In this document: positions 7,397 through 64,000 of the stretch, in pieces
Numbering within the stretch: the stretch's first letter is position 1
Layout: each line of letters opens with the position of its first letter
DNA from: Cyanidioschyzon merolae
Taxonomy: Eukaryota
Direction: 5' to 3' (one strand)
Length of the DNA: 64,000 nucleotides
Assembly (NCBI GenBank): GCA_000091205.1
Contig: AP006501.2
Made by a program: the position numbers and the translations under genes
Notes under the pieces: generated by a model
What the model saw: the letters and a program-made list of their open reading frames with translations, nothing else
Database searches by the model: none
What the model was told of the DNA's origin: nothing

Positions 7397-8266
7397 TCAC
7401 GAGGGTAGCTGTAGCGCCACGAACAGTGATGAATCCTCGTCAGCATAGAATGGAATAGGTCTTCTCATGTGACATGGGCATACATGCGAAAGTTTGGGGC
7501 TCTCCCCATCGTTAGAAGCACCAGCTTTTGCGGGATTTTTCTTCAACTGCTTCCTTTTTCTTTGGCATATCGCTGGCTTTCCATAGGTTGGTCTCTCCCT
7601 TCTCTCCATAACGATTGTCAGCAGCCGATGGATGTTGCTGGCAGCGTTCAGGTACCGATTTCGCTGCCCCGGGTCGCTTTCGATGCATGATATGTACCGA
7701 CGATAGTTGCGGTCTGCGCTTCGCTTGCCAGTTGCATCTTCTTCGTATACGGCCGCGGTGTACTCGTCGCTGCGATGAAACTTGGCTCTGATTAGGTGTT
7801 TCCACACGTATCGATCGCGCGTCCTCTTCCCAGCGTCGTCCTGTCGTACGTGATCTCTTGCCTCATCGCTCGGTAGATGCCCTTGACGTGTACAGAGGGT
7901 TCCGCACGATGCACTCGTCTGTTTCCGCACCCGGTGAGGTACACAACGATCCCGGACTTGTTCTGGACGGATCCATCGGCGAGCGTGCTGCCCGCTCCAC
8001 ATGCACAAGTGCGTGCTGCTCCATTCGATAGAGGATATGCGGTACAAGATGTTGTCCGCGATGAAACAAGTACCAGAGGAAAGCTCCAGGCTCGAGAAAA
8101 AGTCGAGCCATTTCGATCTGTCTACGTGCCTTTTGTACAACGCTATGACGCTAGCTCCGTTGGAAGCGATCACCGCGACATCCAAAAACAGAAGCGAACT
8201 ATGTATGAGCAACGAAATACCAATTGCTTTCTCTCCACGGCAGACGTCGAAACGTTGAACAGCCAT
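7397..8266 (-). CDS. Hypothetical ORF, 289 aa, no recognisable domain
   Basis: Long ORF only; overlapping plus-strand ORFs of similar size (7877..8377); no motif recognised. Confidence 0.2.
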   Translation of the reverse strand: MAVQRFDVCRGEKAIGISLLIHSSLLFLDVAVIASNGASVIALYKRHVDRSKWLDFFSSLELSSGTCFIADNILYRISSIEWSSTHLCMWSGQHARRWIRPEQVRDRCVPHRVRKQTSASCGTLCTRQGHLPSDEARDHVRQDDAGKRTRDRYVWKHLIRAKFHRSDEYTAAVYEEDATGKRSADRNYRRYISCIESDPGQRNRYLNAASNIHRLLTIVMERRERPTYGKPAICQRKRKQLKKNPAKAGASNDGESPKLSHVCPCHMRRPIPFYADEDSSLFVALQLPS

Positions 8267-8685
8267 CAGTATTCTCGAAAGTTTGCCTTTTCATTAGGAA
8301 GGTCCCGTGACCCACACGAGTCTACGAAGCCCGTGCTTCATGATCTCGCCAGTGCCGAGTGCTATGGCGCGATCTGAGCAACTCTTACGGAACGCAGTTT
8401 GTTCTGGGACTAGGGGCGGGGCGGCTGCATCAAGATATGTCCCTGGTCGCAATGGTCTCCCAGCATATCGCTTCGTGCTATCACAGGCCGTTGGTCTGTC
8501 TGCACAGCCTGCAGGCTCCCAGAATAATGAAGGATCCCGATTCTGTGACCAGTGAAGCACGCCTGGAGCCGAATACCTTAATGGTATCGCATAGCCGTTC
8601 TGTCTCCGTACTGCATATGCACCAGCGGTGTAAGCGCACCTTCAGGTGCATCACAAAAGGTTAGGTGCACGACAGAGCATACGAC

Positions 8686-8832
8686 ATAACCAGTACATCC
8701 GAGAGAAGGTCTGAAAAATGGAACTTCAAGCTAGGGTGTACTATCATGGACGCTTTCCCAAAAGCCAATATCCATCTCACAATCTAGCACCCATGGTCCA
8801 TGGAAACGGCCTGTCAAACGAAAAAAGGTCCA
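8686..8832 (+). repeat. Dispersed ~150-nt element X, copy A (non-coding; A-rich 3' end)
   Basis: Aligns with 52025-52170 and 61740-61890: shared '...atgaaa.aaccagta.atc..gag.gaag...gtaat.gaacttggagg.agggt...atggacgcTTTcccgAAAgcc.ctatcc...ggtc.atggaaac' plus a 'gaaaaaa' tail. Confidence 0.6.
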
Positions 8833-8849
8833 GCGATCTCCGCGATGTA

Positions 8850-9470: not shown

Positions 9471-9709
9471 GAAACGCCGCCGTCGCGTCGTCGACCTCGA
9501 TCGCCGGCGCTCGCAGCGTTCGGAACAGGCCAACGGCCGGGAGGCGTTTCCCTGTTTGTTCCTTCGCTCGCTTGAGCGCTTGAGCGCCAGCTCGTGTTCA
9601 AGCAAGTGTACGAGCTCTGGTTTGCGTAAGTTTTCAGCATCTTCAGATCAGTATCGTGTATCGTTAGGATCGTTGAACAGCTCGATCTTGCGACCTGGAG
9701 AACTGCGTT

Positions 9710-13031: not shown

Positions 13032-13236
13032 ACAAGAGAGAACTTTATTGGACAACCTCTCAAAGTCGAACTATATGAGAAAAAGTTGGAAGCAGTAGTA
13101 GGTGGCCGGTCCAAAAAGACAGAGGCGTCTGCACGTTAGTTGGAGATGTTTTGTCTAGCGCGGGTTTCTCGCCACTACTGTACCACTGGCAGCAACGTTT
13201 TTCTTTTGAAAGACGTTTGTTTCCAGGGGCCTCTCT

Positions 13237-13917: not shown

Positions 13918-16903
13918 GGTTCGGGTAGCGACCAGAGTCTTTGCAAGGCCTCGGATGCGAGATAGGATTCTGGGACGCACCGCATACCATCGAAAGCTGC
14001 TCTTTGCTCAGAGCGAGGTTTGGAGGCATGTTGCGGCCTCGTGTCTTGTATGTTAGTAGGCGTGTGGGCTTGCATGTGTTTGTATGGGCACATCCGCATG
14101 TACATGTGTGGATGTGCAATGAACACGTACTTTCATGCTCGGACCGTGGACGAGAGCCACAGTAGCAAACGCTTTCACCGAGACGCGCTAAATGGTCCAT
14201 TGATCGCGAGGGTTCTCTATGACCCAAGCAGGCGACTGCGCTAAGGATCACTGGAGGCCACATCTCGGAACATTGCCAAGGTTCGGATTCTTGATGGGAG
14301 CCCGTCGTGGCGTAGCGCCAGAGATCCCCGTGTGCATACATGGAAAGCGATGTTCACCAAACAGCAAACATTCGCTCCTGTGCAGACGTTTCGGCATTCC
14401 CCCGGTTCCGGTTTCGTCAATCGGATGGGACTAGAAACTCGAGCTAGTGAGCAGAACCGCGGACGCCGAGCTCATTGCGGGTTTCGTCCGGGGATCGAAT
14501 GACGTTTCTTTCGCTGGTTAAGCGTCGAATCTAGGGATCGTGGTATCGTCTGCGGGACGATGCAGCTCAGGTTGCACAAACGATGATGCGTTTCAGAGAG
14601 CATAAACGAAAGGACCCGAAGATCAGGGAATGCTTCCGCCCTGTCGTCCGTGGTGCTGCTGGCGCTGCCACTATTCGCGCCGCACTCGGGACAACACGTG
14701 CCGAACACCAGCGATATCATTTCTCTGAACGAGCTTGCTGTGCAGAAGAAACTGCCTCCAGGCCATTTACACCATCGTCTCGTGCTAAATGCCCGTGCTA
14801 GGGCGTTCCTGCAACACCGGATAGCGAAATACCTTTTCGACTCCGGAACAAGCGGCATGCATGACGTTGTCGTGGAGCCTAGCTATTGAACTTTTGACCC
14901 TTTCTGGCATCAGATATGACTTTAGCATGCGCGAGACGTACGGTTACGACGACGGTTCCTCGCTTTGCATGGCGTGGTGATTCTCAAGAGTGCACCTGCA
15001 CAGTCTGGAAGGCCGCGGTTTCCACCAGCGCATGAGAACACCATCCATACGGGGTTGCAGAGGACGCAGCGCAGCACTGGACTGCAACTCTCAAGTCATT
15101 GATCTGGGCAGCTGACGCCACGCTTTGCCTCACGAATATGCTTGTCAATGAAGGCAGGGGCGCACCTGATTTCTAGGTTGAAAGCATCCGCTTCATAGAT
15201 GAAGGATCGTCGATGCTAGTGTGAGGCGCGTGCGCAAACCTCCCGCACCAGCTGCGAGAAGTTCATTACCATCATTATTAGCAACGAATGGAGCGCGAGA
15301 CTTGCGCTCACGAAAGCACCACGACCGCGAAACCTATTGTCAGACGGGTACCTCGCCGGGCCCTAACGCCAACGATGGACAAGAGCGGGCCGTATCGTCA
15401 AGATAGGACCAACCACAAAAATATCAGATTGAAATGGAGGCCTGAACTGATCGCTCTGTTCCTGCCTTGAGATTGTTCGGAAATTGGTTTCAGATGTACA
15501 GCTTCTCTATTGGAGCTGCAGCAGTCAATGCTTTTGGATTCATAGATCGTTTGAGGCGTCAAGGTCGTGTTTTCCTACCGGCTGCATCCCTTGTCTGCCG
15601 CTGGAATTCGTGCCATCGCCAGATTCGAAATATGTGTCACACCCTATATCAAAATTTCGAATAGTAACTGATACAAAGATCTCATTCATTCGTAAAAGCT
15701 TCCACGCTGTAACTTTTTCTCTGCGTGGCATGCTCGAATCACGCGCGCTTCATACTGTCGACATTTCTGTTTCAGCGGAAGTTGTAGACACAGTCATTCG
15801 CGCTGCTGAAATGACGAGGATGCGGGTAACTTGATGACGTCCATTGACGACCTGTTCACTTGCTCATACGGAAAGTTCACTGAACTTGTCACATGAAATC
15901 ATCGATTCCGTTCAAAACACAAATCCATCACGCTTCGTGGTCATCGACGAAACGACACTGGACTCCCAGAGGGTACCTGTCAGGGCATGTGCTCGCAGGG
16001 GCTCCTGTCTCTTGGAGTCGCACGGAAAGAGGTCTTGGAGTCGGAGTTTGGTTATCAAGGTGATTGCCTCCTGTGGAGATGGCATCGCCGTTTTGGATGA
16101 AGAACGCGTAGGATGACTGAACGTTCTCAACGCGATCTCCAGTCTGGATCCTCGTTCCGGTATGTGTTCGATCATGGACAACATCACATTCCACAAATTC
16201 TGCTATTGATCCGATACCTGCAGCGAACAAATCAGGCGTCATCAGATGCACTTTATCTCATACCGCATGGTAGAACCCCACCTACAACGTCATCAGGACC
16301 GTGTGAGGTGAAGCACACTGCGGGCTACCCAGTGGACGAGCGTGCGCTCACGCCTGCAACAGAACTTGTACGCTCCGAGGCTCTCGCCCAGAGGAAGCCA
16401 GCGATCATAGGATACAGCATGCGGAGCGTTTAACGGAACTAGAAATCGACGAGAGCCAGCGATACCCGTCCCTGGCAGCTAACGAGCGATGAAGCAAATG
16501 TGCAAGCGCAAGACCAAGGCGCGCAGAGGAACCGGTACGGTAGACGAACGAGAATACCTGACCATAGCCATGTGTCACCGCTGGCGGAGACGTCCCGAGC
16601 CTCAACACAATCAGTAGGGAACTGACGAGCAACGCACTACATCGCGACGACCCCCCTGTGCATAAAATGCGTAGAAAAGAGCTGGAAGCGTCTATATCAG
16701 CACCTCAGCGCTGCCATCAACATCCATCAACTGCTGAGTACGGCACCAGAGGTAAATGAGAGACCAGCGTATTCAAACCCGGAGATAGGAGAGACGAAAA
16801 ACAAAGCAGTCGCAGAAAAAGCCAACATATGTTGGTGTTGGTAACAGAAAAGACAGACCGAACCGTATCAAGTCTACATCCGAGTCAGAAGACCCGTTCC
16901 ACT

Positions 16904-21774: not shown

Positions 21775-22133
21775 ACACGCTACAGTGCTACCGCGAATGC
21801 ACTCGGTACTTCGCGCGAAATAGCGGCTTTGGCGTGTGTCGTACCTGCGAGGCAGGTTTCCGCTCTCTGGAAAGCGTCAGGAAGCGCAGGATACCGGGCA
21901 TCGATCTGCCGAGGAAAGCGTGCCAAGCCGTGGCAACTGTGATGTTCATATATAGCTCACGATGTCAATTTTCGTTCCTAAATGGGTTCCTGTCATCGAG
22001 CACTGCTCAATGGCACGACTGGGCTGTCGGCAGCCGCGCTTCCTGCGCGATCAGGTCGAGTCGTGTGAGGCATTATGATCTTGTACAAGTTGTACAGGGA
22101 ACCGTTACATGTGTCTCTATAGTCGGCCCGCTA

Positions 22134-22346
22134 GTCTGCCTGAACTGGTAAACGAGTATCATACCAGTGCACTGCTCCAACCCGGATATTTCTTTTCATC
22201 CAAAGTCTGCCTGAACTGGTAAACTAGTATCATACCAGTGCACTGCTCCAACCCGGATATTTCTTTTCATCCAAAGTCTGCCTGAACTGGTAAACGAGTA
22301 TCATACCAGTGCACTGCTCCAACCCGTATATTTCTTTTCATCCAAA
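22134..22346. repeat. Tandem repeat, 71 bp x3
   Basis: 'gtctgcctgaactggtaaacgagtatcataccagtgcactgctccaacccggatatttcttttcatccaaa' starts at 22134, 22205, 22276. Confidence 0.9.
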
Positions 22347-24950
22347 GTCTGCCGCCATCCATGAAAATACCCACACTGCGCACGAAATGATTCTCAGGAA
22401 ACTTTGCTAGGCATACAACCGATAGGCGGTTCGGGAGCACAAAAGATTTCGGGATATTAATCGAGGTGTTCACGTCTTGGTGCAGAGCGTGCTTGCACGA
22501 CTGATTGCTGGTGGATCCATGCCAGAAGACGCCGCACACACATTCCATTGCCTCGCCATCTGACGCTCGATCAGCGTGCCGTCTACAACGTCCAGCGACG
22601 GGCTCTGTTTTCCGCTCTTCTTCTCTGTCTGTTTCATCGTGCATTCGCGCTTGTGATGCGTTTATGTCGTCCTGAGCGCTTCGGTGGGAATCGATCAGTA
22701 CGGATCCCTGCATTTGTTGTGTGCTCTCGTCGAAGGAGTAGAAGTGCAGCCTTTGCACGCGCGATCGCAATTCCAGTGCCATAGACTGACATGAAACGAC
22801 GCGACCTGTAGGTCGTTTAAGTCTACAACGCATTGAATGAAGTGGCGAATGCAGGCGTCCTGCCTGGGTACAGCCGAATGAGTGTATGAGTAGAGCGCGC
22901 GCGCTCGTACGTCTGCCAACGACCGAATCGCATGAATCCGATAGATGTTCATATACGCTCTATATGAAGTGTCAAATAGCATCCACTTCTCTGCACTATG
23001 GCGCTCAGCGTTTCGGCGTAGGTCCCGCTGCCGTCATGCCACTCCATCGTATACCTCTGGACGCGTATCATGCCCGACTTGTGGCGTAGCGAGCACTGGG
23101 GAAATTCAGAAGCTTCATCTGCTTCCCATTCAGGTCCTTGCTTCAGAACACTTCAATTATCGGTGCGTAGACGAGCACGATATCCTTGGATATAGGGTAC
23201 ACGTGCGCCATCAATATTCGCTCTTCATCTACCTAGAGTGGTTGGTAGCGACTCTCGTTGCTGGGGTCGGGGTGAGGTTTCACGAGCTTCACGAAGTGCG
23301 TCCATAATGATATTCTGTCGTTCTTCACTGTCTTGGTCGTTTTCATTCCATTTCGTATCGGTAAACGAGAAGCCTTTGACAAGCTCCATCAGTTCTGCTC
23401 GCAAAGTTGCTCGAATGCCTCATAATTCCTCGTAGAGACATGCCGTAGCGCACTTTGCAAACTATTCACAACTCAAGCATCCACCGTGAAAGCATGCACC
23501 ATGATATAATACACGGAGAGCAACTCGAGCGGAAGTTTCTGGAAACCAGGGCGCCTGGATTCAGGGAGCGTGTCTTCTCTGCTCTTGACGCTTCAGTTCA
23601 GGAACATGTCACAGCGCAAAAATTCATGCGAGGCAGTTATCACGCTTCAACTGTGCTTTGAACAAGTCCTCCGCCTGGCCGCGGTCGTCGAGAGCAGAAA
23701 CATGACCTTGGACGAGGTCTAGCGACACTCGCTCTGTTTGCAATACTTCGTGCGAGCTCGGTTTCGCCTCGAGCACTGCCGCCACCAGTTCGTGATCCAC
23801 CTCCAATGACATGCCGAAAAACCGCTTTATGGATGTGAACGAGTCGTCTATTGGTTCGTGCTCGTAAACATAGGTCTCAAAGCAGAGAAGACTCCATGGA
23901 CAGGATAGAACCAGGGAGACTACGCTGGCACGAAGCACAGCTCATCGCTAGTCTGTGCTGTGCAGTCTGTGACCGCTTTTGCGTGATTGAAAGCAACGTC
24001 GTCTAAAAGCAGAACAGACTAGTTTGCAAAGACGCAGTTAAGAAGGGAGCCTCGACCAAGATTGAGGTCATGCATTATCATGCCCGCTTCACAATTGTTC
24101 ACTGATCATATCATGGCATTGCGTCTTGGGCCATTGTTGTCTTTATATGCTCCTGTCTCTTCTTTACGAACAGCGCTTTGCCCTTGGTTGTTGCGTGCCT
24201 AGTTACAGGTCTTCGCTTTATCCGGAATATACTCTCAATGAGCGAGACGAGCACCCGTCCCTCCTCTCAAACGTGTTCCGGCTTCCGTAAAACTGCGATG
24301 AAGGACTGTCCTACGAACGGCGATTTCCCATCGAGGCGCCCGTCTTCTGTCCCCATGTGTATCCCTTCAATACCAATCGTGTGAACTGTGCGGAAGCTGT
24401 ATACCGTGCGGTATCTCTTATGGTTTTTCTTAGAAAAAAAAGCGATGGACTAGAACAGATTGATCAGATAATTGTCATGTGGATCCTCTTTGACACATCC
24501 GGTTTTAGATACGCAACGTACAGGATAAGGACTAGAAGCCGAATGCTTCACCCGCCTGCTGACCATGGAATAATTTACTTGCAGAAGCAAGGCCCTTTCT
24601 CGCAAGGTAGCAGTCAGATTATCAAGTCATTCCTTGACCTTTCTCCAACTTACCGGATACGTTCCTTTTTGTTGAATACCCGTGAGAAAAACGAAGAAAA
24701 GCAAAAAACTGGCTGTCGCAGATTCTCTATGAATCACCGCTCTGAGGATAACGTTTCGGGATCGATGTGTCGAGCGAGGCATCCACCAGACGCGCGGAGC
24801 CCGGGACCCCGCAGTCGGAGGAGCGGCAACAATTCTGACCCGGGATCGTTAGATACAACGCACCGCATATCATACCTGACTTTAGGAGAATGCTCCATTC
24901 GAGAGATCTTCGGGGTGCTGAACCTGCCCCAGAAACTAGCCATAGTGCCG

Positions 24951-25080: not shown

Positions 25081-26047
25081 CGAGACACGTTGACGCTCTG
25101 AACGCCATGCATTGACGCGAATTCGGCGCTGAACGAATTAGATGGTATCCCAATCGAGCAGTAGGCAGCTTGTCTGCATAATGTCAGTACTATAGAGAAT
25201 GAGTATCTCGGAAATGAATTCCGGAGTATTTTGACGAATACAAATACGCTGGTCGAAGAGGAGTCTCCATTGCGCGTAGCATTTCTTTTCGGAAGCTGCA
25301 CCCTTGTCGGCTACTGATAGAACGATGGACGACGTACAATATTCCTGAGATTCACATGATATCTGAACTTTATGTAGGTGACGAACCTCGACATTCGACG
25401 TGTAGCAGTAAGGGCCTTGGGAGTTATTCTTCGTTTTCGGCCTCTCGATAGTTTTGTTTTTCAGAGGGGCTCTTTCGACATTGTACCGCTGGGGTTCTTC
25501 GTGCGATTGTCTTCAAAATGATTCGTGACGTCCCTGAACAAGCGTTCATACAATTACCCATTGCATTGACCATTGCGTGCCCGCGGGCCCGCACTTGGAT
25601 CCGTTCCTCACAAGTCATCTGCTCAATTCACGCTGTTTTTTTGCGCTTCATTGTTTCAGCTTTTAGGCAACTAGTGGACACAGCGATTCACGCCGCTGGA
25701 TTCATGACGAACAGAGAAATCTCCGTCGTGCCTTGGCAACATCGTCACAAGTTTATGCGGAAAGTTCGACGAACTCTTCAAGTCATGGATAAAATCTGAA
25801 AGACAAATCCACGTGTCTTTGTACTCGTCACCGGTACGGCATACGACATAGGCATGATACCTCTCAGGAGGTATACCCACGAAAGGCTTTTTCTCCTCTG
25901 GGTACTTAAAAAAGGATGTTGGTCACGGACTTTCGTCATCGCAGAGATCCGTACCAGTAGAGATTTCGTCTCCGTTTTGCACGAAGGAAGCATCCATAGA
26001 TCGACATCCCTCGACTTGTGCTCCGGTCCGGATTCTGCTTCCTGTAC

Positions 26048-26639
26048 TCATTTCATCATATATAGCATTTCGTTCACCAGACCCTCTATCGAATGGAACA
26101 GCTTGCGCCTGCCTATGTAGCGCACAGCATATTCACCAGGCGCGTCGCATAGAAGATGCTCTTGGTCGTAGTGCACGATATCGGGTGTGGAAACTGACGA
26201 TTTGTGCATCGGCGGGAGCATGCTGGACATGTCAAGTGCATGTACCGAGCGTTGAAGCAACCATTGACGCACCGCAGGGCAGCGCTCTAGTGATGAGGAT
26301 GTTCGATGGACACTTGGAAACACCTGACCACAGCTACGTGCCAACGCTATGAATAGCGCACCAAAATTGCATAAGAAGATGATGCTGAAAATTGCAGGAG
26401 ATGCGTAGATCCCAACCTCCTGTTGAACACGAAATGCATGGACAACAGCCAGCAACTGCGAAATCGAGCCTTGAATGCTGCCATGCACACCGTTCACAGC
26501 TTGTGAACGGTGCTGGATCGACATTAGCGCCAAGCGTCTTAAAGGCCGCGAGTAAGTGTGAGGAATAGGAAGCAGTTCCAAAAAAAGCATGCTCGCGAAC
26601 GCTGGCGTTCATGACTCGGGTCGAAAGAGACCCGAACAT
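26048..26639 (-). CDS. Hypothetical membrane protein, possibly frameshifted (two overlapping ORFs, 26334..26639 and 26048..26590)
   Basis: Two same-strand ORFs in different frames; the second has a TM-like 'FSIIFLCNFGALFIALA'. No homology recognised. Confidence 0.2.
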
Positions 26640-26835
26640 TAGCGCATATGCACGTGTTCATAGCTTCGTTCCACGCTATGCTGATATGGGTCTGAAAAGA
26701 CCCGAACTTTAGCGTACATGCCCGTGTTCATAGCTTCGTTCCACTCTGTGCTGGTATGGGTCTGAAAAGACCCGAACTTTAGCGTACATGCCCGTGTTCA
26801 TAGCTTCGTTCCACGCTATGCTGATACGGATCTAG
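26576..26835. repeat. Tandem repeat, ~70 bp x ~3.5, each unit with an inverted-repeat hairpin
   Basis: Unit 'GGGTCTgaaaAGACCCgaactttagcgtacatgcccgtgttcatagcttcgttccac.ct.tgctg.tat'; stem gggtct/agaccc. Confidence 0.85.
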
Positions 26836-33431: not shown

Positions 33432-34500
33432 TGTACAGGATCATGAGCTGTACAGTGTAGGTAGGATTCCAAAGTGGTATGAGATATTCTTACTTGTCGT
33501 TAGACGTTGGATCATGAGCTGTACAGTGTAGGTAGGATTCCAAAGTGCTATGAGATATTCTTATTTGTCGTTCGACGTTGGATCATGGGCTGTACAGTGT
33601 AGGTCGGATTCCAAAGTGCAATGAGATATTCGTACTTGTCGTTCGACGTTGGATCATGAGCTGTACAGTGTAGGTCGGATTCCAAAGTGCAATGAGATAT
33701 TCTTACTTGTCGTTCGACGTTGGATCATGAGCTGTACAGTGTAGGTCGGATTCCAAAGTGCAATGAGATATTGTCACTTGTCGTTAGACGTTGGATCATG
33801 AGCTGTACAGTGTAGGTAGGATTCCAAAGTGCTATGAGATATTCTTACTTGTCGTTCGACGTTGGATCATGGGCTGTACAGTGTAGGTCGGATTCCAAAG
33901 TGCTATGAGATATTCTTACTTGTCGTTCGACGTTGGATCATGAGCTGTACAGTGTAGGTCGGATTCCAAAGTGCTATGAGATATTCTTACTTGTCGTTCG
34001 ACGTTGGATCATGAGCTGTACAGTGTAGGTCGGATTCCAAAGTGCAATGAGATATTGTCACTTGTCGTTAGACGTTGGATCATGAGCTGTACAGTGTAGG
34101 TAGGATTCCAAAGTGCTATGAGATATTCTTACTTGTCGTTCGACGTTGGATCATGAGCTGTACAGTGTAGGTCGGATTCCAAAGTGCTATGAGATATTCT
34201 TACTTGTCGTTCGACGTTGGATCATGAGCTGTACAGTGTAGGTCGGATTCCAAAGTGCTATGAGATATTCTTACTTGTCGTTCGACGTTGGATCATGAGC
34301 TGTACAGTGTAGGTCGGATTCCAAAGTGCTATGAGATATTCGTACTTGTCGTTCGACGTTGGATCATGAGCTGTACAGTGTAGGTCGGATTCCAAAGTGC
34401 AATGAGATATTCTTACTTGCCGTTCGACGTTGGATCATGAGCTGTACAGTGTAGGTCGGATTCCAAAGTGCTATGAGATATTCTTACTTGTCGTTAGGCT
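33432..34500. repeat. Minisatellite, 71-bp unit x ~15
   Basis: Unit 'tggatcatgagctgtacagtgtaggtcggattccaaagtgctatgagatattcttacttgtcgttcgacgt' with minor variants (gtaggtAgg, aagtgCaat, attGtcac). Begins immediately 5' of the ENGase start. Confidence 0.95.
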
Positions 34501-38339: not shown

Positions 38340-38870
38340 GAAGTCAACCCTAACTTGAATATACCAGTCCGTGCCAACAAACTGCATACCTTTCATACTC
38401 CGCTGATACGAACAGATGACAGCATTGCCTCTAGCACGCGCACCAACTCTAATACATACATACATACCAGACCGTGCCAACAAACTGCATACCTTCCATA
38501 CTCCGCTGATACGAACAGATGACAGCATTGCCACTAGCACGCGCACCGACTCTCATACATACATACCAGACCGTGCCAACAAACTGCATACCTTCCATAC
38601 TCCGCTGATACGAACAGATGACAGCATTGCCACTAGCACGCGCACCAACTCTAATACATACATACATACATACCAGTCCGTGCCAACAAACTGCATACCT
38701 TCCATACTCCGCTGATACGAACAGATGACAGCATTGCCTCTAGCACGCGCACCAACTCTCATACATACATACATACCAGTCCGTGCCAACAAACTGCATA
38801 CCTTCCATACTCCGCTGATACGAACAGATGACAGCACTGCCACTAGCACGCGCACCGCCAGAGCGCCATG
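38340..38870. repeat. Tandem repeat, ~104-bp unit x ~5, with embedded (acat)n
   Basis: 'ccgtgccaacaaactgcataccttccatactccgctgatacgaacagatgacagcattgccactagcacgcgcaccaactctcatacatacatac' recurs at ~38372, 38476, 38578, 38684, 38786. Confidence 0.9.
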
Positions 38871-47455: not shown

Positions 47456-48890
47456 GCCTCAGGCTTGGCTTGCGGCAGTGTTCGGTAGCTTGGAATACGC
47501 GTCGTATCCGGTGGTACTGCGTCTCGCACACCGGCGCGCAGGTGTAACGTGCAGTAAACAGGAGTTGTACTGTGCGTCGACTGGTGCGGAGGCTGGGGGC
47601 GTCTCTCGGGGAAACCTGCTGAGGCCAGCAAAACTCTGCAGACGTACCCACGCCTGAATAGAATGGAAAGCCTTCTCTGACACTGGAGTACTCGTTATGG
47701 TATTGGTCTCTTCGCACTATCATCGACAAAAGGCTTTGCTAGCTTTCCGTGCGACGGCTTACTTTCCTTTTGTCTTACACGGGGCTTTCACGACGTCAGT
47801 CTCTTCTGTACCTCAGGATCCGTTCTCAATAGTCGAAGGATGCTAGCGGTAGGACTCACGTCCCGATGTCTCTGCTTGCGGCTGTTGTCGACGCATTTCC
47901 TGCCAGGGCCGATGTTGCGACCTACGCTCTGTTATCTATTTTTAGCTTCGCTGCAGAAAGACTCGATGCGCCCCTGGCGGCGTTTACACTTCGCTGCGGG
48001 AACATGTACCCGAGTTGTCCAAGCGTGCGCGCCTCATCCCGCTCTGAGCAGCACGCTTCGGCCCATGAAGGCTTGCTCCATCGCACGGTACGGTATGCTC
48101 CAGACGCGTACAAAGAATCCGTACCTCAGTTCACCCACCTGTTTCCGCGCCCAGTGCCGTCACGGTCGATCGTTGACTTCGTCTAGGCGAACGCCTCGGC
48201 GAGTACCCTGTCCGCTGTACTCGCAAGTGCATGCTGTCGCATTCGATAAAGGATTTGACGAGCGCTGTGTTGTCCATGATGAAACAGGAACCGGAAGCAG
48301 AATCCATGCTGGAGTAGAGATCCAGTGCGTACGATCCGTCCACGCTCCATTTGTGCTGATCGGTGGCATACGCTCTATATGAAGCGATGGCTGCAATGGC
48401 CAAAGTCCAAATCCATGAAGTTTTTCCATGGAAACAGAAGAGGCGGGAGTCTCAGGGAGCATGCTCCCCGCGTGAAACACACCATGCTGCTGTCGAATCA
48501 GGATTCATCGATGGCCTCAAGTAGAGAATCATTGATCTTTCGAAGGCAATCGCTCATTTGAAATGACAAGTTCAGGACACATTCGACAAGAGCTCGTGAC
48601 CCTCGCATCGTGATTTCATCGAAGCGCTTTGCCCTGAAAAGAGAAGATCGAAGATTTGAAACATACATGATTTGTACAGCCTACTCGTCAGGAACGTGGA
48701 AGCGTCCAGGCCTCTACGTATGACTCGGATCACGGGGTCGGTTGCCTACGAGAGCGTGTCCGAAGGCGTCGCGAATTGTCTTGATTCCGTTGACGTAACG
48801 AATTCCATCTGCAAAACGTCCAAGAAGGCACCCTTAAAAAATAAAGACTAGCAGCTGTCATGCGACCTATGCATCCGACAGCGCTCATAG

Positions 48891-49535
48891 CTATGCTTTG
48901 AATATCGCTGTTCTGAATATAAAAAACATGACATAAGATCGCAAGGTCCGAGCGACGCACGCAATTCTGTGCGTTAAGTTTATCTTGTAACAGGTGTTTT
49001 CGCGAGTCTGACCCCTCAATATCCATCGACGCGTTTGAGTGCACGACGACGACAGCGTGGATGTGTATACACCGACGTATAGACGCTTCTCAGTCTTTCT
49101 CGACTGGCCACCTACTACTGGGTTCAAGTTCTCCTTGTGCAATTTAGCCCTGTGAGGCTGCTTCTTAAAGTTGGTTCGCGTCAACCCCGGAGACCTGCTC
49201 TCCAGCATCGCACATCTCCTGATATCAAGAGCGGCGTTAAAGTCACGATACAAGAACTCTATGCGATTCTTGCCTCTGATGGAACGCACCAGTGCAGGTA
49301 GGCCTCGAACTCGTGCCCCGTTCATTGCCATTTGCTCTTGCGTCAGCGCTCCGTACTTTTCTGTATCCCCAGGGCTCCGCTGACACGTTTTCGTCTCGAC
49401 CCTCTGAAGTGTGCACCTCTGCTCATGGTGTCTATAGGACATTCGGAACTCATCTGTCGGTATTGTGACGAAACGCTTTGCGCATTCTTTATACGTTCTC
49501 GATGTTGGAGCGGGTGTACACCCGTTTTGGGTCAT
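48891..49535 (-). CDS. Family-B protein (214 aa), intact copy with ATG; function unknown
   Basis: Homolog of 12624..13031 under apparent purifying selection. 'MTQNGCTPAPTSRTYKECAKRFVTIPTDEFRMSYRHHEQRCTLQRVETKTCQRSPGDTEKYG...IEFLYRDFNAALDIRRCAMLES...'. Lies immediately downstream of the degenerate family-A copy on the same strand. Confidence 0.5.
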   Translation of the reverse strand: MTQNGCTPAPTSRTYKECAKRFVTIPTDEFRMSYRHHEQRCTLQRVETKTCQRSPGDTEKYGALTQEQMAMNGARVRGLPALVRSIRGKNRIEFLYRDFNAALDIRRCAMLESRSPGLTRTNFKKQPHRAKLHKENLNPVVGGQSRKTEKRLYVGVYTSTLSSSCTQTRRWILRGQTRENTCYKINLTHRIACVARTLRSYVMFFIFRTAIFKA

Positions 49536-49539
49536 CTAG

Positions 49540-51333
49540 CGCCCTGCTCCGAATGCGACTGCGGACCTTTAACTCCTGTCCTCCTTCAAGGCGCTCAACG
49601 CATTGAAAAAGTCGGCAAATGCTCGCTGCTTCCCGCAGTGTGGATTCGTACGCGGACGAGCCCACCGGAGCTTGGTATACTCTCTTCACAGCGCCTCCCA
49701 ATGCGCTACGCGAACTTTCGTGAATTCCCGAAAACCTCGACTGTTCGCTCCGCGGCTCGTCGCCTCGCTCATAGCTACCAGGTGCTCTTTCATATCTGCA
49801 TTCCACGAATCGATTTGCTTCCTTGCATTCATGATTCCCCGATTCTCGATAGTATCTTGCTCTCGAGAACCTCTAAAAGTCGCATGTCTTTCTGACCTTA
49901 GTTACCGTCAGTACCATCTGCCGCACGCCTGGGTACTCCGATGGTTACGATATTCGTGTTGCCGGGGTCCGCGCCAACACCCATGTCGTTCTGCGTCGCA
50001 GGACCCGCCTCATTCTGTTCTTTATGTGCATTGCCGAGAGCGATATCGAGGACTGACCAGGACGATCCGCCTCCTTGAAGCGCCTAGAGTGTACATTTAT
50101 TGTTACCCCATCGGTTTCGATCATCCCCATGAATACAGTTTTCTTGCTCTTTTTGAGACGTTTGAAATCGAAGATGCTCTTCCAGTACGTCTCCCGGTTC
50201 TCGCCGTTGAACGCCTCCCTGCTTACATCGAGCTCCGGACTGATCTCCTTCATGATGCCGTGAAGGACTCTGGAGTTGATTGAGACAATGCGCGACTTGA
50301 TCTCGCATATCGGAACGAAGTTGAAGCGCTTCTCCAGAATCGCAGCCTGCCGTCTCTCGGACTCTTGAATTCTTCGCCTATCCAGCTCTTTTTCGGCCTT
50401 GCGCTCGATCTCTCGATTCAGAAACACAAGCTATCACAGGACTAGGGTAGTACATCTTTTACCATCTGTTTTCCATATCTGATACCGTTTCTGGTGGAAT
50501 CGCCAGCCCTAGAACCGCATGCTGCGTTTGAACAGCTCCACGGATCACGGAAGATTCATTCTCTCTCCTGCGTAATTTCTACTTGTCTACAAATTCGATC
50601 TCCTGCTCAAGCTGACTATCGTTCGTGATGCCATTGATGAAGTTCCATATCCCTTTGCGAGACAGGCACGAGTAAAGTGCAAAGATGGAGCGTATCGTGA
50701 AATGTTCGGGGATCATGATCACGTGGTTCCTCAGGTTCATTAGGTACTTCAACGCTTCGTAGGTGTAAACATTCGAGTTCCGCCCCCCAGATCGAGTGCC
50801 TTCGAAGCGGTACTTGGGGCATTTTTCGTGGAGGGCATCCACCAGCTCATTTCTCCTCGACGCTTGCCCTGTCCCAAGCATCACGTACCTTATAAAGGTC
50901 TTTTCAAAAAATTCTTCCGGAACCTCGACTGTTCTGATGTCTGCGACATCGCGATACATCTCCCGCACCATACGCATCAGTCCTAAAGAAGGCTTCCAAA
51001 TACTCATCCAGTAAGACGCGACACGGTTTCTGATGGATTTTCGCAACTTTTGCCTATAAGGATGCTGGGTACGGCGTAGGAGAAAGGCTATCATTACCAT
51101 CTCGTCGAACTGTCGTCTTTCGAGCAGCTTCTGACGTTGGGCCTCCCCCTTTTGCTTCTTCGTCTTTTCCCGTTGCTATGGTGTCGGAAATGTTTTTCGT
51201 TTCTTGCTCTGGCAGCCGGCGACACCGGCCATCCGGGGTCCTTCGGCTCCGTTGCCGTTAATTTCCTTTTTCTATTCTTGAAAGCGATCCCATTTCGACT
51301 GCGTCGGCTAAAATCGCGAAAAATCACTTGCAC
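49540..51333 (-). pseudogene. Family-A ORF, degenerate copy (several frameshifts and stops)
   Basis: Fragments 51333..51094, 51100..50579 and 50427..49945 are ~55% aa identical to the plus-strand ORF 62154->64000: 'HPYRQKLRKSIRNRVASYW...EMYRDVADIRTVEVPEEFFEKTFIRYVMLGTG' vs '[19 protein letters not shown]...[32 protein letters not shown]'; '[67 protein letters not shown]' vs '...[19 protein letters not shown]'. Homology continues to ~49700, matching 63901-64000. Confidence 0.7.
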
Positions 51334-52024
51334 AAACTCGCTTGAGGGTTGAAATACGATTCAGCCGAAAGACTATACTTTGCTGGGGGCTCAACGCAAA
51401 TACATGTTGTACGTTAGAGCAACCCGCTCAGATGAAGCATCGCGTTTCCCATCAACGGCGTGATACGCGTCGTCTCTCACGCATGCAAGATAGGGAAAAG
51501 CGCGTATTGAGCGTGCTGTCTAGAACAAGGAACAGAAACGAACCACCAACTAGCAACGATGTACAAATTTCTTTCCCTCTTTACGATAAACGATAAAAGG
51601 GGGAAAGGTTTCCGCATTTTCGAAAGTTTCCTCTCTCGACGGAAGGTCCCGCGAGCCGAACGAGTCTGTCGAGCTTGCGCTCTGTGGGCACCCACCGTTG
51701 TCAGGTGCTGGGGCGAGACACGACCGCCTCCTCTGCCATAGAGTTCATTCTGGGAACAGCGGCGGTCATGCTGCAACTGGGCATCGCCCTGGTCGCAGTG
51801 GTCGCCTAGAATGTCGCTTCGCGCTGCCGCAGGCAGTAGGTCTATCAGCACAGTTTGCAGGCTCTCAGAACGATTATGAATACCGACTCCGTATCAGGTG
51901 CACCGTACATCGGTCCGATGCCCTATGCGATATAGCAGAGCTGTTCTCTATACCGTGCTGCATCGGATTCAGCGGTTTAGGCGCTACTGCGGGCGCTCAG
52001 GGCAGGCACTTGGTGCACGATAGA

Positions 52025-52170
52025 TCCTATGAAATAACCAGTATATCCCAGAGGAAGAACAAGTAATGGAACTTGGAGGTAGGGTACAGTTTAATGGACG
52101 CGTTCCCGAACCCCATTATCCATCCCCACACTCTGGTACCCAGGTTCAATGGAAACATGGGGTCATCGGA
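52025..52170 (+). repeat. Dispersed element X, copy B
   Basis: See copy A. Carries a 1-nt indel relative to A and C and a compensatory t-a->g-c pair in the hairpin; 3' tail degenerate. Confidence 0.6.
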
Positions 52171-52401
52171 AAGACCAGATCGTATGGAGTCCATCGGTGC
52201 AGGGTGGTGGTGGCGACGCTGCTGCCGCTGCCGTTCTTTGTGCGATCTGTGGATAGCATGCAACGAAAAACGCCGCCGCCCTCAGGCAGCACGGCATCTG
52301 AAAGCAGCACCAGGAACGGTTCAAAGCCTATAGTCTTATTGTTCACGTGGAAGGCGTAATCTTGAACTGTAACGCTGTTGCCAAACTGAAACACAGAGAC
52401 A

Positions 52402-54453
52402 ATGAACAGTTCACACGGAGACGCTATCGTTGACGAGGAAGCAGGCATGACTGCCGAGCACCTCAGTGAACACGTGAACGGGGACACGTACGTACCCTTT
52501 GACCCGCTCAAGTCCCATGTAGACGATGAGTTCTCCGAGTTTAGCATGGATGCAGGGCACGGCTCTTTCTTTGAAGGCCAACCATCCGAATCTAAAACCG
52601 CGGAGGACTCGCTTGTTCAGCAGCAAACCGTGTCCATGAACTGGCACGACTTGTGCTTGTCGGTCCGACTCAAAACAGGTGGCCCATTTAAACGCTCGAA
52701 GGAAACCGTGGTGAAGCCCATTCTCAAAGGCATAACTGGTTACGTGCGACCGGGTCAAATGCTCGCCATTATGGGGGGCAGTGGTGCGGGTAAGTCCACG
52801 CTTTTAGCCATGCTCGGGGGTCGTGTTCCTGTGGGTGAGTACGAAATCAGCGGTGAGCTACGTGTCAACGGGCACGAACGCGACGTCAACATGTTTCGCC
52901 GCTACACAGGATTTGTCGAGCAGGACGACCGCATGTTTGCTGACCTCACCGTACGTGAACAGATCGAGTTTAGTGCGCAGTGTCGTTTGCCAGCCTCGAT
53001 GCCCACCGAGAAGAAGATGCGGCGCGTGGAGCAGGTGATCACTGAGCTGGGCCTTGCCAAGGCCGCCGACACCCCCATCGGGAACGCTGTACAGCGAGGT
53101 GTCAGTGGCGGTGAACGCAAGCGCGTGAACATCGGTATAGAATTGGTGACGAACCCGCCACTACTGCTGCTGGATGAGCCGACCACCGGCCTGGACTCGT
53201 TCCAGGCACAGGCGGTGATGCTCACGATGTTGCGGCTAGCGAAACGCGGGCGTACGATCATTGCAACCATTCATCAACCACGTTCGCAGATCTTCCAGAT
53301 GTTTGATTACCTGTTGCTGCTAAGCGAGGGTCATCAAATCTACTTTGGTCCGGCGAAAGATATGGTGCCGTATTTCGCGGCGCTCAAGTATCCATGTCCG
53401 GCCTACTTTAACCCAGCGGACTTTGCACTGGATTTGATCTCTCTGAATGCGCGCTCCAAGACACTGGAGAAGCAGACACGGGCACGAATCAGTTACCTAG
53501 CCAATCGCTTCCTCGAACACAAGTCGGAGGCCTCGCTGCCGTTGGATGATCCGTTGGGCGCCACCGGTGACCTGCATACCAAAGTAACGCGTAAGGGCGT
53601 GTCGCTCTTCTCGTCCGAAGGCGAACCGAACTACGCTGAACCGTGGCCGGTACAGTTTGGGCTCCTGGTGAAGCGCTCCTTCAAACTCATGGTGCGCGAA
53701 AAGGGCACGAACTTTGCGCGCTTCTTTCAGACGATCATCTTTTCAGTCGTTTTGGGTTTGATCTGGTTGAACACTGGACGCAATTCCTCTGACTTTAACG
53801 CTGTACCCGGTGTTCTTTTCTTCCTGCTTATCAATCAATCTTTCGGGGCGTCGTTCGGCGTTGTTTTCTTGTTCCCGCTTGAGCGGGGTATTGTCTTGCG
53901 AGAGCGCACATCGCGTTTCTATCGCGTAAGTGCTTACTTCCTCGCCAAGAGCGTCGCCGAGCTTCCCCGATTGGTGGTGCTCGCTGTTCTTTTCTCTTGC
54001 ATCACGTACTGGATGGTAGGCTTGCAACCGCACCCGTCCTCTTTCTTCATCTTCGTTGCACTTGTGCTGTTGACGACCCACACCGCGGAATCACTGACCC
54101 TTATGGCTAGCGCCTCAGCGAGTAGCCCGCAAACAGCAGCGGCAATCGCTCCGGTACTGATCGTGCTGTCGCTGCTTTTCGGCGGCTTCTTTATCGGCCC
54201 TAACGTGATTCCCGTGTGGTTGCGATGGCTTCGTTTTGTGTCGTTTATCTACTATGGATTCGCGGCTGTCATGGACAATGAATTCGGGTACATTCCGCGT
54301 TCGAATACCAATAATCCACTGGTCACGTACAACATCAATTCATTTGGTATCGGCGGAAACATCGGTTTTCTAATCATGCTTGATGTAGCGTATCGCGCAA
54401 TCGCCTTTGTGTTCCTGCTCTATAACAAGCCGCGATTCCAGAAAAGCATCTGA
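52402..54453 (+). CDS. ABC transporter, ABCG (white/brown-type) half-transporter: NBD followed by TMD
   Basis: Walker A 'GGSGAGKSTLL', signature 'VSGGERKRV', Walker B 'LLLLDEPTTGLDS'. ~6 C-terminal hydrophobic helices. 683 aa. Confidence 0.9.
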   Translation: MNSSHGDAIVDEEAGMTAEHLSEHVNGDTYVPFDPLKSHVDDEFSEFSMDAGHGSFFEGQPSESKTAEDSLVQQQTVSMNWHDLCLSVRLKTGGPFKRSKETVVKPILKGITGYVRPGQMLAIMGGSGAGKSTLLAMLGGRVPVGEYEISGELRVNGHERDVNMFRRYTGFVEQDDRMFADLTVREQIEFSAQCRLPASMPTEKKMRRVEQVITELGLAKAADTPIGNAVQRGVSGGERKRVNIGIELVTNPPLLLLDEPTTGLDSFQAQAVMLTMLRLAKRGRTIIATIHQPRSQIFQMFDYLLLLSEGHQIYFGPAKDMVPYFAALKYPCPAYFNPADFALDLISLNARSKTLEKQTRARISYLANRFLEHKSEASLPLDDPLGATGDLHTKVTRKGVSLFSSEGEPNYAEPWPVQFGLLVKRSFKLMVREKGTNFARFFQTIIFSVVLGLIWLNTGRNSSDFNAVPGVLFFLLINQSFGASFGVVFLFPLERGIVLRERTSRFYRVSAYFLAKSVAELPRLVVLAVLFSCITYWMVGLQPHPSSFFIFVALVLLTTHTAESLTLMASASASSPQTAAAIAPVLIVLSLLFGGFFIGPNVIPVWLRWLRFVSFIYYGFAAVMDNEFGYIPRSNTNNPLVTYNINSFGIGGNIGFLIMLDVAYRAIAFVFLLYNKPRFQKSI

Positions 54454-61266: not shown

Positions 61267-61739
61267 ACTCGTACGCTAGTCAATATTTTTGTTCAAGTAT
61301 ATCTCGCGCTTATTTCGTGCCACTTCAGCGTTCCACGTCGTCTCTAGTGCACGCTCCCTTTCGTGCTTCACTTCGTTCCGGAAACAGGTACCAGGGCACG
61401 CGCACTCGGAGGGTGCCGTTCGCTGGGCCGCCAACCTCGCCACCGTGTGTCTCCACCCCAAAATTTCGACGATGCAATGCCCGTTTTCGAAAAAGTACCT
61501 GCCTAAGGTTCCACCTTCGAAGCGTCACCGTCTCGAAAACGCAAAAGCGCACGCTTCCGCAGTGCGCATTCTAGCGCGCGGCAAAGTGCGAAAGCAACAC
61601 GCATCCGGCGGCGGCGTGTCTACACGCATCCGGCGCTGGGATGGCGGGATCGCTGCGAGCACGCATGCTGCAAGCGTAGCGGCGCTATAGGCGCCGCTGC
61701 TGTCGCTATCGGCAAGCACTAGGCACACGCAATAGCACG

Positions 61740-61890
61740 TATGAAACGACCAGAATATCTGAGAAGAAGTACAGGTAATCTAACTTGGAGGAAGGTGCTT
61801 CATCATGGACGCTTTCCCGAAAGCCACTATCCTTTCCGAATTCTGGAATCCATGGTCAATGGAAACGTCTTGTTAATGAAAAAAACGAAT
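61740..61890 (+). repeat. Dispersed element X, copy C (~265 bp upstream of the family-A ATG)
   Basis: See copy A. Shares the A-rich 3' end 'atgaaaaaaacg' with copy A. Confidence 0.6.
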
Positions 61891-62153
61891 CGCGCTCGGT
61901 GGGCGCACCTGGGAGATCAGGCAGTCAACTGACGCGATGCGCGTGCCGTTGTTGAAGGGAAACTCATTTGGGATCACGAGCGTGTTGTTCAGCTGTAAAA
62001 TGTTGGATTTCCGTTCAGGTCGTAGCCAAGTAAAGTTTTTCAGTTTATTTTTGTTTCAAACTTCAAACACGTTTAGTCAAGTGTTTTTTCGCAGTATATA
62101 ACAGCAGGGCTCAAAGAGCGTTCTTTTTCAAAGAAACTAATAAAAGGAAAGTT

Positions 62154-64000
62154 ATGAAAAACCAAGTCCACGATCCTGGAGCCCCAGTGTCGCCGGCTGC
62201 CAGAAAAAAAACAAAAAACAGTGCCGAGTCCAGAAGAAAAGGAAGAGAAGAAGGACCGAAAGGGGGAGGCCCTACGTCGAAGGCGGCACGAGAGACGACT
62301 GTACGACGAGGTGGTGGTGAAAACCTTTCTTCTTAAACTTATCCAGGATCCCTATAGGAAAAAGTTGCGAGGCGCTATCGAAAAACGTGTCGACACGTAC
62401 TCCAAGAATATTGTCAAGGCGTCGTCGGGACTGATGCATTTAGCGAGGGAGATGTACGAAGACGTCGCGCACATGGAAACAGTCGAGATTCCAGACGAGT
62501 TCTTCGACAAGACCTTTATTCAACACCTGATGCTTGGTACAGGGGAAACGCGGAGGGAAAATGAGCGGGTGCACGCCCTCCACGAAAACTTCGCGGGATT
62601 CCGCTTCGAGGGTAATCGATACAAGGGTGACTCGAATATGTACGGCTATGGGGCGATGAAGTACCTCACGAACCTGAAGAACCATTCGATAGTGAACCTC
62701 GAACGTTACATGATACGCGCCTTGTTTGCACTCTACCCGGGCATCTGTCCGAAAGGAATATCAGCGATTATCAATGGCATCACGCACGATCGCAAGCGTG
62801 AAGATGACATCGAATTTGTCGACAAGAAGGCATCAAAAGTGAGCACGAATGAAGCTTCTGTAATCCGTGCGGTTATACAAGAGCACCGTGCGGTACTGGG
62901 GCTGGTGAGTCCAACAGACAAGATATCAGAGTCGAAAAAGGATAAGGAAAGATACTATCGCCTCATCCTGTGCTATTTCGTGTTTCTGGACCGAGAGCTC
63001 GAACGCAAGTCGGAGATGAACCTGAGTGAAGAGACAAATGAAGAGTACGAGAGACGGAAGGCTGTCCTAATGGGGAAGCGCTTCAACGTGGTTCCAATGT
63101 CCAATATCAAGTCACATTATGTGACTACCGACTCCAGAGTCCTTTACGGCATCATGAGGGAGATCAGTCCCGAATTCAATGTTAGTGTGGAGGGCTTCAC
63201 CGGCGAAAACCGGGAGACGCACTGGAAGAATATCTTCGATTTCAAACGTCTCAAAACGAGCAAACAAAATGTATTCACCGGGATGATCGAAGCCGATGGA
63301 GTAGCCTTGTGTGTACACAATCGGCGATTGAAGAAAGTTCGTCCAACTCCGCCTTCGGCTGCGCCCGTCATGAAGGATGAAGAAAACAAAGAGGAGGATC
63401 CTGTGACGCAGGAGGAGCAGGATGACGACCTTGTCGTTGGCGTGACGAAGGATGAAGAAAACAAAGAGGAGGATCCTGTGACACAGGAGGAGCAGGATGA
63501 CGACCTTGTCGTTGGCGTGACGAAGGATGAAGAAAACAAAGAGGAGGATCCTGTGACACAGGACATGCATGATAACGATTTTGTCGTTGGCGTGACGAAG
63601 GATGAAGATGAGAAGGAGGCGAGTCCTGCGACGCAGGAGGTGGAGAATAACGACTTTATGGTTGACGCGACGAAGCATGAAGAAAAGAAGGAGGCGGATC
63701 CTGCGACCCACAAAGTGCAGGATAACGACTTTGTCGTTGGCGCGGACCCTGGGAATACGAATATCATAACCATCGCTGCTCCCAAGCGTGCGGAAGATGG
63801 TACTGATGGTAACTTACGTCAGAAAGACATGCGTCTGTTGAGGTTCTCGAGAGCGAGATACTATCGAGAATCGGGAATCATAAATGCAAGGAAGAAAATC
63901 GAGACTTGGAATTCAGGAATGAAAGAGCACCTGGAAGCTTCGAGCGAGGTGACGAGCCGAGGAGCGGACTTTGAAGCTTTTCGGAAATTCACGGAAGTTC
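62154..64000 (+). CDS. Family-A ORF, apparently intact, running off the window. Short 5' ORF (frame 0, 62154..62336) followed by the main ORF in the +1 frame from ~62311. Putative transposase-like or unknown multi-copy protein.
   Basis: Main frame open from 62158 to the window end (>600 codons) with no ATG before 62436. Strong synonymous-biased divergence versus the 50-51 kb copy. Contains an internal 75-bp (25-aa) acidic tandem repeat x5. Confidence 0.6.
63373..63750 (+). repeat. In-frame coding tandem repeat, 75 bp (25 aa) x5
   Basis: '[25 protein letters not shown]' repeated inside the family-A ORF; absent from the 50-51 kb copy. Confidence 0.85.

Follow-up and report, generated by a model that had tools for sequence, protein, structure and literature searches.

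Introduction

In LINE/SINE pairs with 'stringent' recognition, known from the work of Okada and Kajikawa, the two partners share a 3′ tail, as do UnaL2 and UnaSINE1 of the eel. Dependent elements of another kind occur in the trypanosomatids, where RIME/ingi, NARTc/L1Tc and SIDER represent non-autonomous elements derived from LINEs; these are short and non-coding, have no pol III head and rely on the machinery of the parent element, and deletion derivatives among them keep their ends.

The genome of Cyanidioschyzon merolae is among the smallest and most repeat-poor of free-living eukaryotes. Twenty-six non-LTR elements have been reported for it (PMC1955436), and Nozaki et al. 2007 described a 253-copy '3.2-kb interspersed element' with a WSV486-like ORF, which is evidently the same as CMe-1A, the ~3.2-kb Fanzor1 element that Bao & Jurka (2013, Mobile DNA 4:12; PMC3627910) catalogued at ~150 copies in C. 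merolae. These authors found the 5′ 635 bp of CMe-1A to be 95% identical to a separate repeat of ~70 copies, TE-N2_CMe; both repeats were entered in the class 'unknown', being without terminal inverted repeats (TIRs) and with no detectable target-site duplications (TSDs), and genomic copies were ~80% identical to the consensus (PMC3627910).

The subject of this study is a stretch of 64,000 nt of nuclear DNA from C. merolae contig AP006501.2 (GCA_000091205.1), referred to throughout as the window, which has 54.8% G+C and long intron-free ORFs on both strands. The original prediction for this DNA had singled out a dispersed unit of ~150 nt, here called X, in three copies (A, B and C), and offered three explanations for it: a SINE-like retroposon, a small structured RNA gene, or a cis-regulatory or 5′-UTR module shared by the genes downstream. 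We show that X is the conserved 3′ end of the catalogued ~640-bp repeat TE-N2_CMe, an ordinary mobile-element tail, and we weigh what kind of mobile element that tail belongs to.

Results

Three homologous copies of X were present in the window at the predicted places, all on the plus strand, as judged by comparing the window with itself (BLAST E=3e-45 for A-B, E=1.6e-23 for B-C and E=1e-12 for A-C). A model prepared from 17 tails (sequence only) gave exactly three matches in the window, at 8662-8825, 52009-52172 and 61726-61884. The idea of a stand-alone unit of ~150 nt did not hold, as X proved to be only the 3′ third of a longer repeat, i.e., approximately its last 165-190 nt. The homology between A and B extended over ~630 bp (8187-8807 against 51531-52156, 67% identity), and copy C shared just the last ~220 nt with A and B and is a 5′-truncated copy. 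The predicted lack of coding was seen again, with 1-nt indels breaking the frames in the alignment of the copies; every frame is broken in copies A and B, and the indels between copies leave them without a coding capacity of their own. The A-rich ends were also found as described (GAAAAAA in copy A and GAAAAAAA in copy C), the end of copy B being the degenerate GGAAAGA.

Copy A (8182..8826, plus strand, ~645 nt, X at 8662-8826) is a full-length solo retroposon of the TE-N2_CMe type that ends in GAAAAAA, and was delimited from the match of CMe-1A consensus positions 4-611 to window positions 8816-8208 (75.6%) together with the A-B alignment from 8187 to 8807 and the model match at 8662-8825. 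It lies between an upstream target-site duplication, AGCGATCACCGCGA (8165..8178), and a downstream one, AGCGATCTCCGCGA (8832..8845, beginning 5 nt past the A-run), neither assigned to a strand; the two agree at 13 of 14 nt, a score reached by only 2 of 2000 shuffles. Copy B (51522..52172, plus strand, X at 52009-52172, tail GGAAAGA) is a full-length element of the TE-N2 type whose 5′ start, AGAACAAGGAACAG, is common to at least 8 loci. It stands head-to-head with an inverted Fanzor1 unit (49071..51513, minus strand), the coding region of which is degenerate, with frameshifts, and is not part of X; the pair makes up one CMe-1A copy (consensus 1-3092 against 52168-49071, 79.6%). Copy C (61666..61886, plus strand, ~220 nt, X at 61726-61884) ends in the tail given above, with the 5′ terminus of another Fanzor1 unit directly after it; its homology to other copies ends at -83 from the core, and consensus positions 6-189 match 61873-61688 at 81%.

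The published CMe-1A consensus (supplement to PMC3627910) starts with the reverse complement of X. TE-N2_CMe is the first 641 nt of CMe-1A, and by BLAST the window copies were 75.6-81% identical to it, in reverse orientation to the consensus (1-641 against copy B, 79.8%; 31-638 against copy A, 75.6%; 453-636 against copy C, 81%). X is in this way contained in a longer TE that was already known, TE-N2_CMe, which forms the left end of CMe-1A, an outcome that the original prediction had listed as speaking against it.

The window holds several other repeats. An 85-bp tandem array (8853-9454, 7.1 copies, 94% matches) begins 8 nt past the downstream duplication of copy A and yields spurious ORFs on both strands (8885-9583, plus; 9119-9727, minus). 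Other intergenic minisatellites, with periods of 70-103 bp, lie at 33438-34495, 38361-38856, 22133-22353, 26618-26833 and 1963-2162, and in the largest of them a 71-bp unit occurs 14.9 times (96% identity). Another dispersed repeat, 'R1' (~0.6-1 kb; copies 65-70% identical), occurs at 7511-8136, 11966-12251, 16696-16845 (minus), 25998-26416 (minus) and 47811-48807; it adjoins copy A on the upstream side and, at B, lies beyond the CMe-1A copy, past its 3′ end. It was present in ~20-26 of the loci fetched and had no match in a Pfam search.

The wider family was assessed by scanning a metagenome collection with the pattern ACCAGNAYATCNNAGAN{15,19}AACTTNNAG, which occurred in at least 120 stretches. 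Stretches identical at 97% or more were merged to 55 groups, and removal of 8 chance or unalignable groups left ~47 distinct X loci among the matches listed; 20 core positions are fixed by the scan pattern, and conservation there is therefore unusable as evidence. Among the loci (numbered with the prefix L), some are the sites of the window itself as they occur in near-identical strains: L024 and L072 correspond to copy A, and L080, L098, L099 and L101 to copy B. Among the matches listed, the ~47 loci have a common 3′ terminus, ...AAACGTTTTGTCA(A/T)(T/C)GAAAAAA, i.e., GTCA(A/T)(T/C)GAAAAAA, after which unrelated DNA begins, and the flanks were different in all of them. Right ends fell at +140 or at +155-170 from the core and left ends anywhere from -16 to beyond -4100, again among the matches listed, with random truncation points at -25, -45, -69, -83, -114, -408, -931 and -1111. 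Two lengths recurred, each with differing flanks and duplications: a class of ~645 nt, starting with GAAAGAACAGAA at -505 in no fewer than 8 loci, window copies A and B among them, and a class of ~300 nt, starting with CCTCGAGCC at -130 in ~9 loci among the matches listed. The tails themselves are of two types, sf1, which is that of the window (...CATGGACGCTTTCCCGAAAGCC...GGGATCCATGG...), and sf2, in which the hairpin region considered below is replaced and an A-rich stretch inserted. Two core matches 105 nt apart were seen in L123/L062, representing a local tandem duplication of the X core.

Target-site duplications, proposed earlier as a check on additional copies, were indeed present: they abut the element ends and are 8-22 bp long, a score of 9 or more being obtained for 9 of 35 copies compared with 0.9% of mismatched flank pairs. 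Examples are ATCACGAGCTGCG at L015 (13/13), a 22-mer at L097 (21/22), CGAACACCTCGA at L069, ATCGCGCCCTCG at L107, and a case matching at 12/12. Many copies have no clear duplication, which may reflect their age or imprecise boundary calls. Across the full-length TE-N2 copies, X was modestly better kept than the rest, with pairwise identities per 50-column block of 0.71-0.78 against 0.53-0.80.

Some of the longer loci encode protein remnants. In L083, L081, L032 and L048, ORF fragments on the strand of X, 1.5-2.3 kb upstream of it, carry the motifs F.DF.KAFD.V.H, SP.LF and FADD; the fragments match Pfam RVT_1 (E=6.2e-14, 52.6 bits against a cut-off of 29.6; second half, E=6.7e-5). This reverse transcriptase (RT) shares 80-81% identity with the C. 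merolae 10D proteins named 'retroelement, alive' and is remotely like RTs of the jockey/Tx1/LINE-1 type, and the 'retroelement' match fits the 26 non-LTR elements mentioned above. A CCHC-like motif in L003 had been taken up as a lead toward a LINE; Pfam gave no confirmation of it, and the RT fragments in the longer copies settled the question. The ORF of the long sf2-type copies L003 and L081 stops ~280 nt before the X core, and X is therefore 3′ UTR. The last 280 nt of TE-N2 and the tail of the RT-bearing L032 agree at 80.6%, and the ~645-nt TE-N2 is collinear with the last ~540 nt of the LINE at 61-67%. L077 (3876-4637) is a derivative of the LINE with an internal deletion, so placed that the N-terminal region runs directly into X at -63; beyond X there is a 3′ piece of a Fanzor unit. 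The degenerate LINE copies gave no match to an endonuclease domain. For the first ~107 nt of TE-N2, no similarity to the LINE or to any Rfam family was found, and the suggestion that TE-N2 arose from the LINE by deletion, keeping its 5′ and 3′ ends, was rejected, as these nucleotides differ from the 5′ end of the LINE. Within the window, tblastn with pieces of the LINE protein found no RT remnant, and Pfam gave no match for the ORFs around copies A and B.

The search for a 5′ head with A/B boxes, which had been put forward along with the search for duplications, was negative: no tRNA was found in the X element (ARAGORN), and there was no tRNA, 5S or 7SL head. Rfam gave nothing at the gathering threshold; when all of copy B was searched at E<=5, the sole matches were to two miRNAs and are put down to chance. 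Since there is no pol III head, the element is SINE-like and not a SINE in the strict sense.

The gene next to copy C belongs to what the original prediction called family A, which is the Fanzor1 element CMe-1A of C. merolae, encoding a TnpB-like RNA-guided nuclease. A profile of the family matched Fanzor1 proteins in PDB (9cf0 of Parasitella, E=4e-23; 8gkh of Spizellomyces, 1e-17; 9cer of Guillardia, 7e-10), and the Pfam domain Cas12f1-like_TNB was detected in 6 of 34 relatives; structure prediction for the Fanzor protein reached a pLDDT of 41.5, and the profile search of PDB sequences was used instead. Besides the inverted unit at copy B, the window contains, at 61889..64000 (plus strand), a Fanzor1 unit that runs off the end of the window (consensus 648-2451 against 61891-64000, 84-91%) and whose ORF, starting with the ATG at 62154, is frameshifted near 62336, and also a 556-bp 3′ fragment at 12664-13215 (plus strand; consensus 2614-3169, 89% to the consensus). 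The ORF of the former includes an in-frame 75-bp tandem repeat (63372-63742, 4.9 copies) just before the GADPG RuvC motif, and the repeat number differs from those in the consensus and in L003. Divergent Fanzor-like remnants were noted at 2208-2964 (plus) and 22539-23080 (minus), with tblastn matches to the C-terminal half of CMe-1 at 24-40% amino acid identity (E=8e-24 and 1.6e-14). A weak inverted repeat in the DNA, 2565-2672 against 22749-22642, falls at the same two places.

The Fanzor units make base-precise contact with the retroposon ends. At ~9-10 of the 47 loci among the matches listed, LINE or TE-N2 ends directly adjoin the exact Fanzor 5′ terminus (CGAATCGCGCTCGGTGGGCGCACC...), in both orientations, the partner being an A-tail or a 5′ end (full-length or truncated); this recurs far too often for chance. 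The window junctions are 51513/51522 and 61886/61889. Tail-to-head junctions were seen in window copy C, L017, L020/L044, L032 and L077 (here onto a truncated Fanzor unit), and head-to-head junctions with full-length TE-N2 (window copy B, L102 and L019), with a LINE truncated at -1111 (L003 and L054) and with a near full-length LINE (L083); in L032 the LINE has Fanzor 5′ ends on both sides. Canonical CMe-1A, read on its antisense strand, ends in TE-N2 with the X tail and A-run. Fanzor1 fragments retaining only the 3′ portion share the same 3′ end and have different internal starts (window 12664-13215, L077 4631-5547 and L117 2956-3178), a pattern of 5′ truncation with no A-tail at the 3′ end. 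No convincing TSDs were found around whole CMe-1A composites, the boundaries of which are uncertain. Transduction of the Fanzor unit by the LINE at its 3′ side was rejected, as the Fanzor 3′ end is without an A-tail, and L045 compared with L020/L044 was discarded as an empty/filled Fanzor site, as the flanks past the breakpoint do not match.

These junctions bear on the reading of X as the left terminal sequence of a DNA transposon, namely the Fanzor1 element CMe-1A, with TE-N2 as its non-autonomous derivative, and we judge this reading to be improbable. It would explain why the CMe-1A consensus opens with the reverse complement of X and has its first 635 bp in common with TE-N2_CMe at 95%; window copy B is such a composite, and Fanzor1 proteins are usually carried on DNA transposons (PMC3627910). 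TE-N2, however, keeps one CMe-1A end only and has no TIRs (PMC3627910), and the TSDs in the present data vary in length, where a MITE or DNA-transposon end would have TIRs and a TSD of fixed length. The solo copies have duplications ranging from 8 to 22 bp and finish in an A-run, the same tail ends an RT-encoding LINE, and there are Fanzor units that lack TE-N2 or adjoin LINE pieces of different lengths and in the other orientation. Nor does X occupy the position of a Fanzor/TnpB guide RNA (omega-RNA) scaffold, since the side of the Fanzor unit where it lies, in both orientations, is the 5′ one and not the 3′ end; ~35 of the 47 loci among the matches listed have no Fanzor unit beside X.

The position of X relative to genes was the basis for the proposed cis-regulatory role. 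The predicted distance of 230-330 bp to a downstream ORF start was confirmed for copy B (232 bp) and copy C (268 bp) and failed for copy A, which is 884 bp from ORF 9710; this ORF has a GTG start and no Pfam match, and the tandem array lies between it and the copy. For copy C, this distance of 268 bp corresponds to the leader that belongs to the Fanzor unit itself (consensus 648-906). Likewise, the orientation shared with the downstream gene applies to the three window copies, all on the plus strand, and does not extend to the family: among the loci listed, the nearest downstream ORF shared the strand of the element in 20 and lay on the other strand in 15, and for the nearest upstream ORF the corresponding numbers were 8 and 25. 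Gene starts flank the element 45 times and gene ends 23 times, a modest excess from crude ORF calls that include the Fanzor ORFs; such an excess is expected in a compact genome where divergent, promoter-containing intergenic regions are longer, if insertions are best kept there.

The gene downstream of copy B encodes an ABCG protein (52402-54453) 86% identical to that of Cyanidiococcus yangmingshanensis and 93% identical to a protein from a hot-spring metagenome, and L002, a Cyanidiococcus contig, shows synteny with the window in its gene order SNF2 / ABCG / pseudouridine synthase / kinase. The spacer between SNF2 and ABCG is 1.6 kb in Cyanidiococcus and 4.9 kb in the window, i.e., 3.3 kb longer (47456-52401 compared with L002 8395-10001), the extra DNA being R1 plus the CMe-1A copy; the spacer downstream of the kinase has likewise gained copy C and its Fanzor unit. 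The sequence model found no X at the syntenic Cyanidiococcus locus, the region upstream of ABCG included, which is why copies B and C are regarded as lineage-specific insertions. In L001, the 93%-identical relative, there was no X directly upstream of ABCG; the one match, weak and on the reverse strand, lay ~1.3 kb away (E=3.8e-4). That X is a shared cis-regulatory or 5′-UTR module, possibly an exapted TE, which tunes downstream plus-strand genes is accordingly very improbable. The two short distances to ATGs and the surplus of starts over ends speak for such a module; set against them are the mixed orientation, the absence of X from the Cyanidiococcus orthologue and from the place directly upstream in L001, the derivation of the copy C distance from the Fanzor leader, and flanks that differ at all of the ~47 loci listed. 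Moreover, of the three 'genes' downstream, one encodes an ABCG transporter, one is a Fanzor1 repeat, and the third is an ORF of doubtful status with a tandem array before it.

The hairpin described earlier, GCTTT/AAAGC, exists, and the change of T-A to G-C in copy B is real; the neighbouring pair becomes C.C in the same copy. Over 17 independent sf1 tails, 83.5% of the cells pair, and 3 of the 5 pairs show a double change. The covariation score of 0.164 (shuffles, 0.103+-0.017) was above all but 2 of 500 column shuffles, with the caveat that related sequences can score in this way without structure and that the helix was read off the same sequences. RNAalifold returned -1.65 kcal/mol with a covariation term of -0.18, MFE z-scores for five tails were -0.7, +0.5, -1.25, +0.06 and -2.7 with folds that differed between copies, and sf2 tails have no hairpin, the region being replaced by the A-rich insert. 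The helix may be a small local one in a single subfamily and does not define the element. That X might be a dispersed gene for a small structured non-coding RNA has the pairing of this 5-bp hairpin and its few double changes in its favour and is extremely improbable, given that the searches for Rfam families, tRNAs and a stable conserved fold were all negative, RNAalifold detected next to nothing, the z-scores scatter around zero, and the copies, 67-80% identical with indels, look like decaying repeats.

Discussion

Taken together, X is very probably the 3′ untranslated tail common to the LINE-type non-LTR retroelements of Cyanidioschyzon-type red algae and to their non-autonomous derivatives. 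Of the explanations first offered for X, the SINE-like retroposon was essentially right, in agreement with the fixed A-tailed 3′ end, the target-site duplications, the 5′ truncation, and the occurrence of X as the tail of an RT-encoding LINE. The autonomous member of the family would be a LINE of ~4.3 kb with an RT ORF, corresponding to the C. merolae annotation 'retroelement'; the ~645-nt element (TE-N2_CMe), the ~300-nt element, and the internally deleted and 5′-truncated copies would be non-coding derivatives with the same tail, copies A and B representing full-length TE-N2 and copy C a truncated one.

The anatomy of the copies suggests how they could have been mobilized. The element would be transcribed; the LINE protein would then recognize the tail of the RNA, that is, X and the short A-run, and after nicking of the target would prime reverse transcription on this tail (target-primed reverse transcription). 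Such a series of events would leave a fixed 3′ end, a variable 5′ end and a duplication of 8-22 bp, and X would have been kept across the classes as the part that every mobilizable RNA needs. This role in tail recognition, which is suggested by the anatomy together with the known LINE/SINE pairs, is the most likely one for X. The distance of 230-270 bp before two ATGs would result from insertion into short intergenic regions and, for copy C, from a fixed Fanzor1 leader of 258 bp.

The family resembles the UnaL2/UnaSINE1 pairs in that the similarity between the autonomous RT element and the short non-coding ones is confined to the 3′ end, with a fixed 3′ terminus, 5′ truncation and target-site duplications; it differs in having no head derived from tRNA, 5S or 7SL, and a plain short A-run where those pairs have a short tandem repeat. 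Like the trypanosomatid elements, these are short non-coding LINE derivatives that lack a pol III head and would rely on the parent machinery, and a deletion derivative that keeps the ends is represented here by L077. Unlike them, TE-N2 begins with ~107 nt that are not the 5′ end of the LINE, the lineage is unrelated, and no regulatory role in UTRs was seen. With the Repbase entry TE-N2_CMe our elements agree in sequence family, in the length of ~640 nt and in the association with the Fanzor1 unit; they depart from the published description in their opposite orientation, and in being an A-tailed retroposon with duplications and a tail shared with a LINE. If TE-N2 is a LINE-dependent retroposon joined to the Fanzor1 unit, this also accounts for the presence of a separate repeat in the first 635 bp of the Fanzor1 consensus.

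The precise junctions raise the further thought that the Fanzor1 element is mechanistically coupled to LINE-type retroposition in these red algae, which we regard as unlikely. The LINE machinery may move the Fanzor unit or the composite through the X tail; the Fanzor boundary may be a preferred integration site for LINE and TE-N2 copies, e.g., at breaks made there; and it is possible that the Fanzor unit targets LINE/TE-N2 ends. This base-precise contact between LINE/TE-N2 and Fanzor1 is the only part of the results possibly of interest to specialists in RNA-guided nucleases.

The element itself is not new, and what is added is a class for a repeat listed as 'unknown', i.e., a LINE together with its non-autonomous derivatives. 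For the annotation of Cyanidiophyceae genomes, the ~640-nt and ~300-nt elements and the tails found near gene starts should be masked as retroposons, and such tails should not be taken for promoters or RNA genes.
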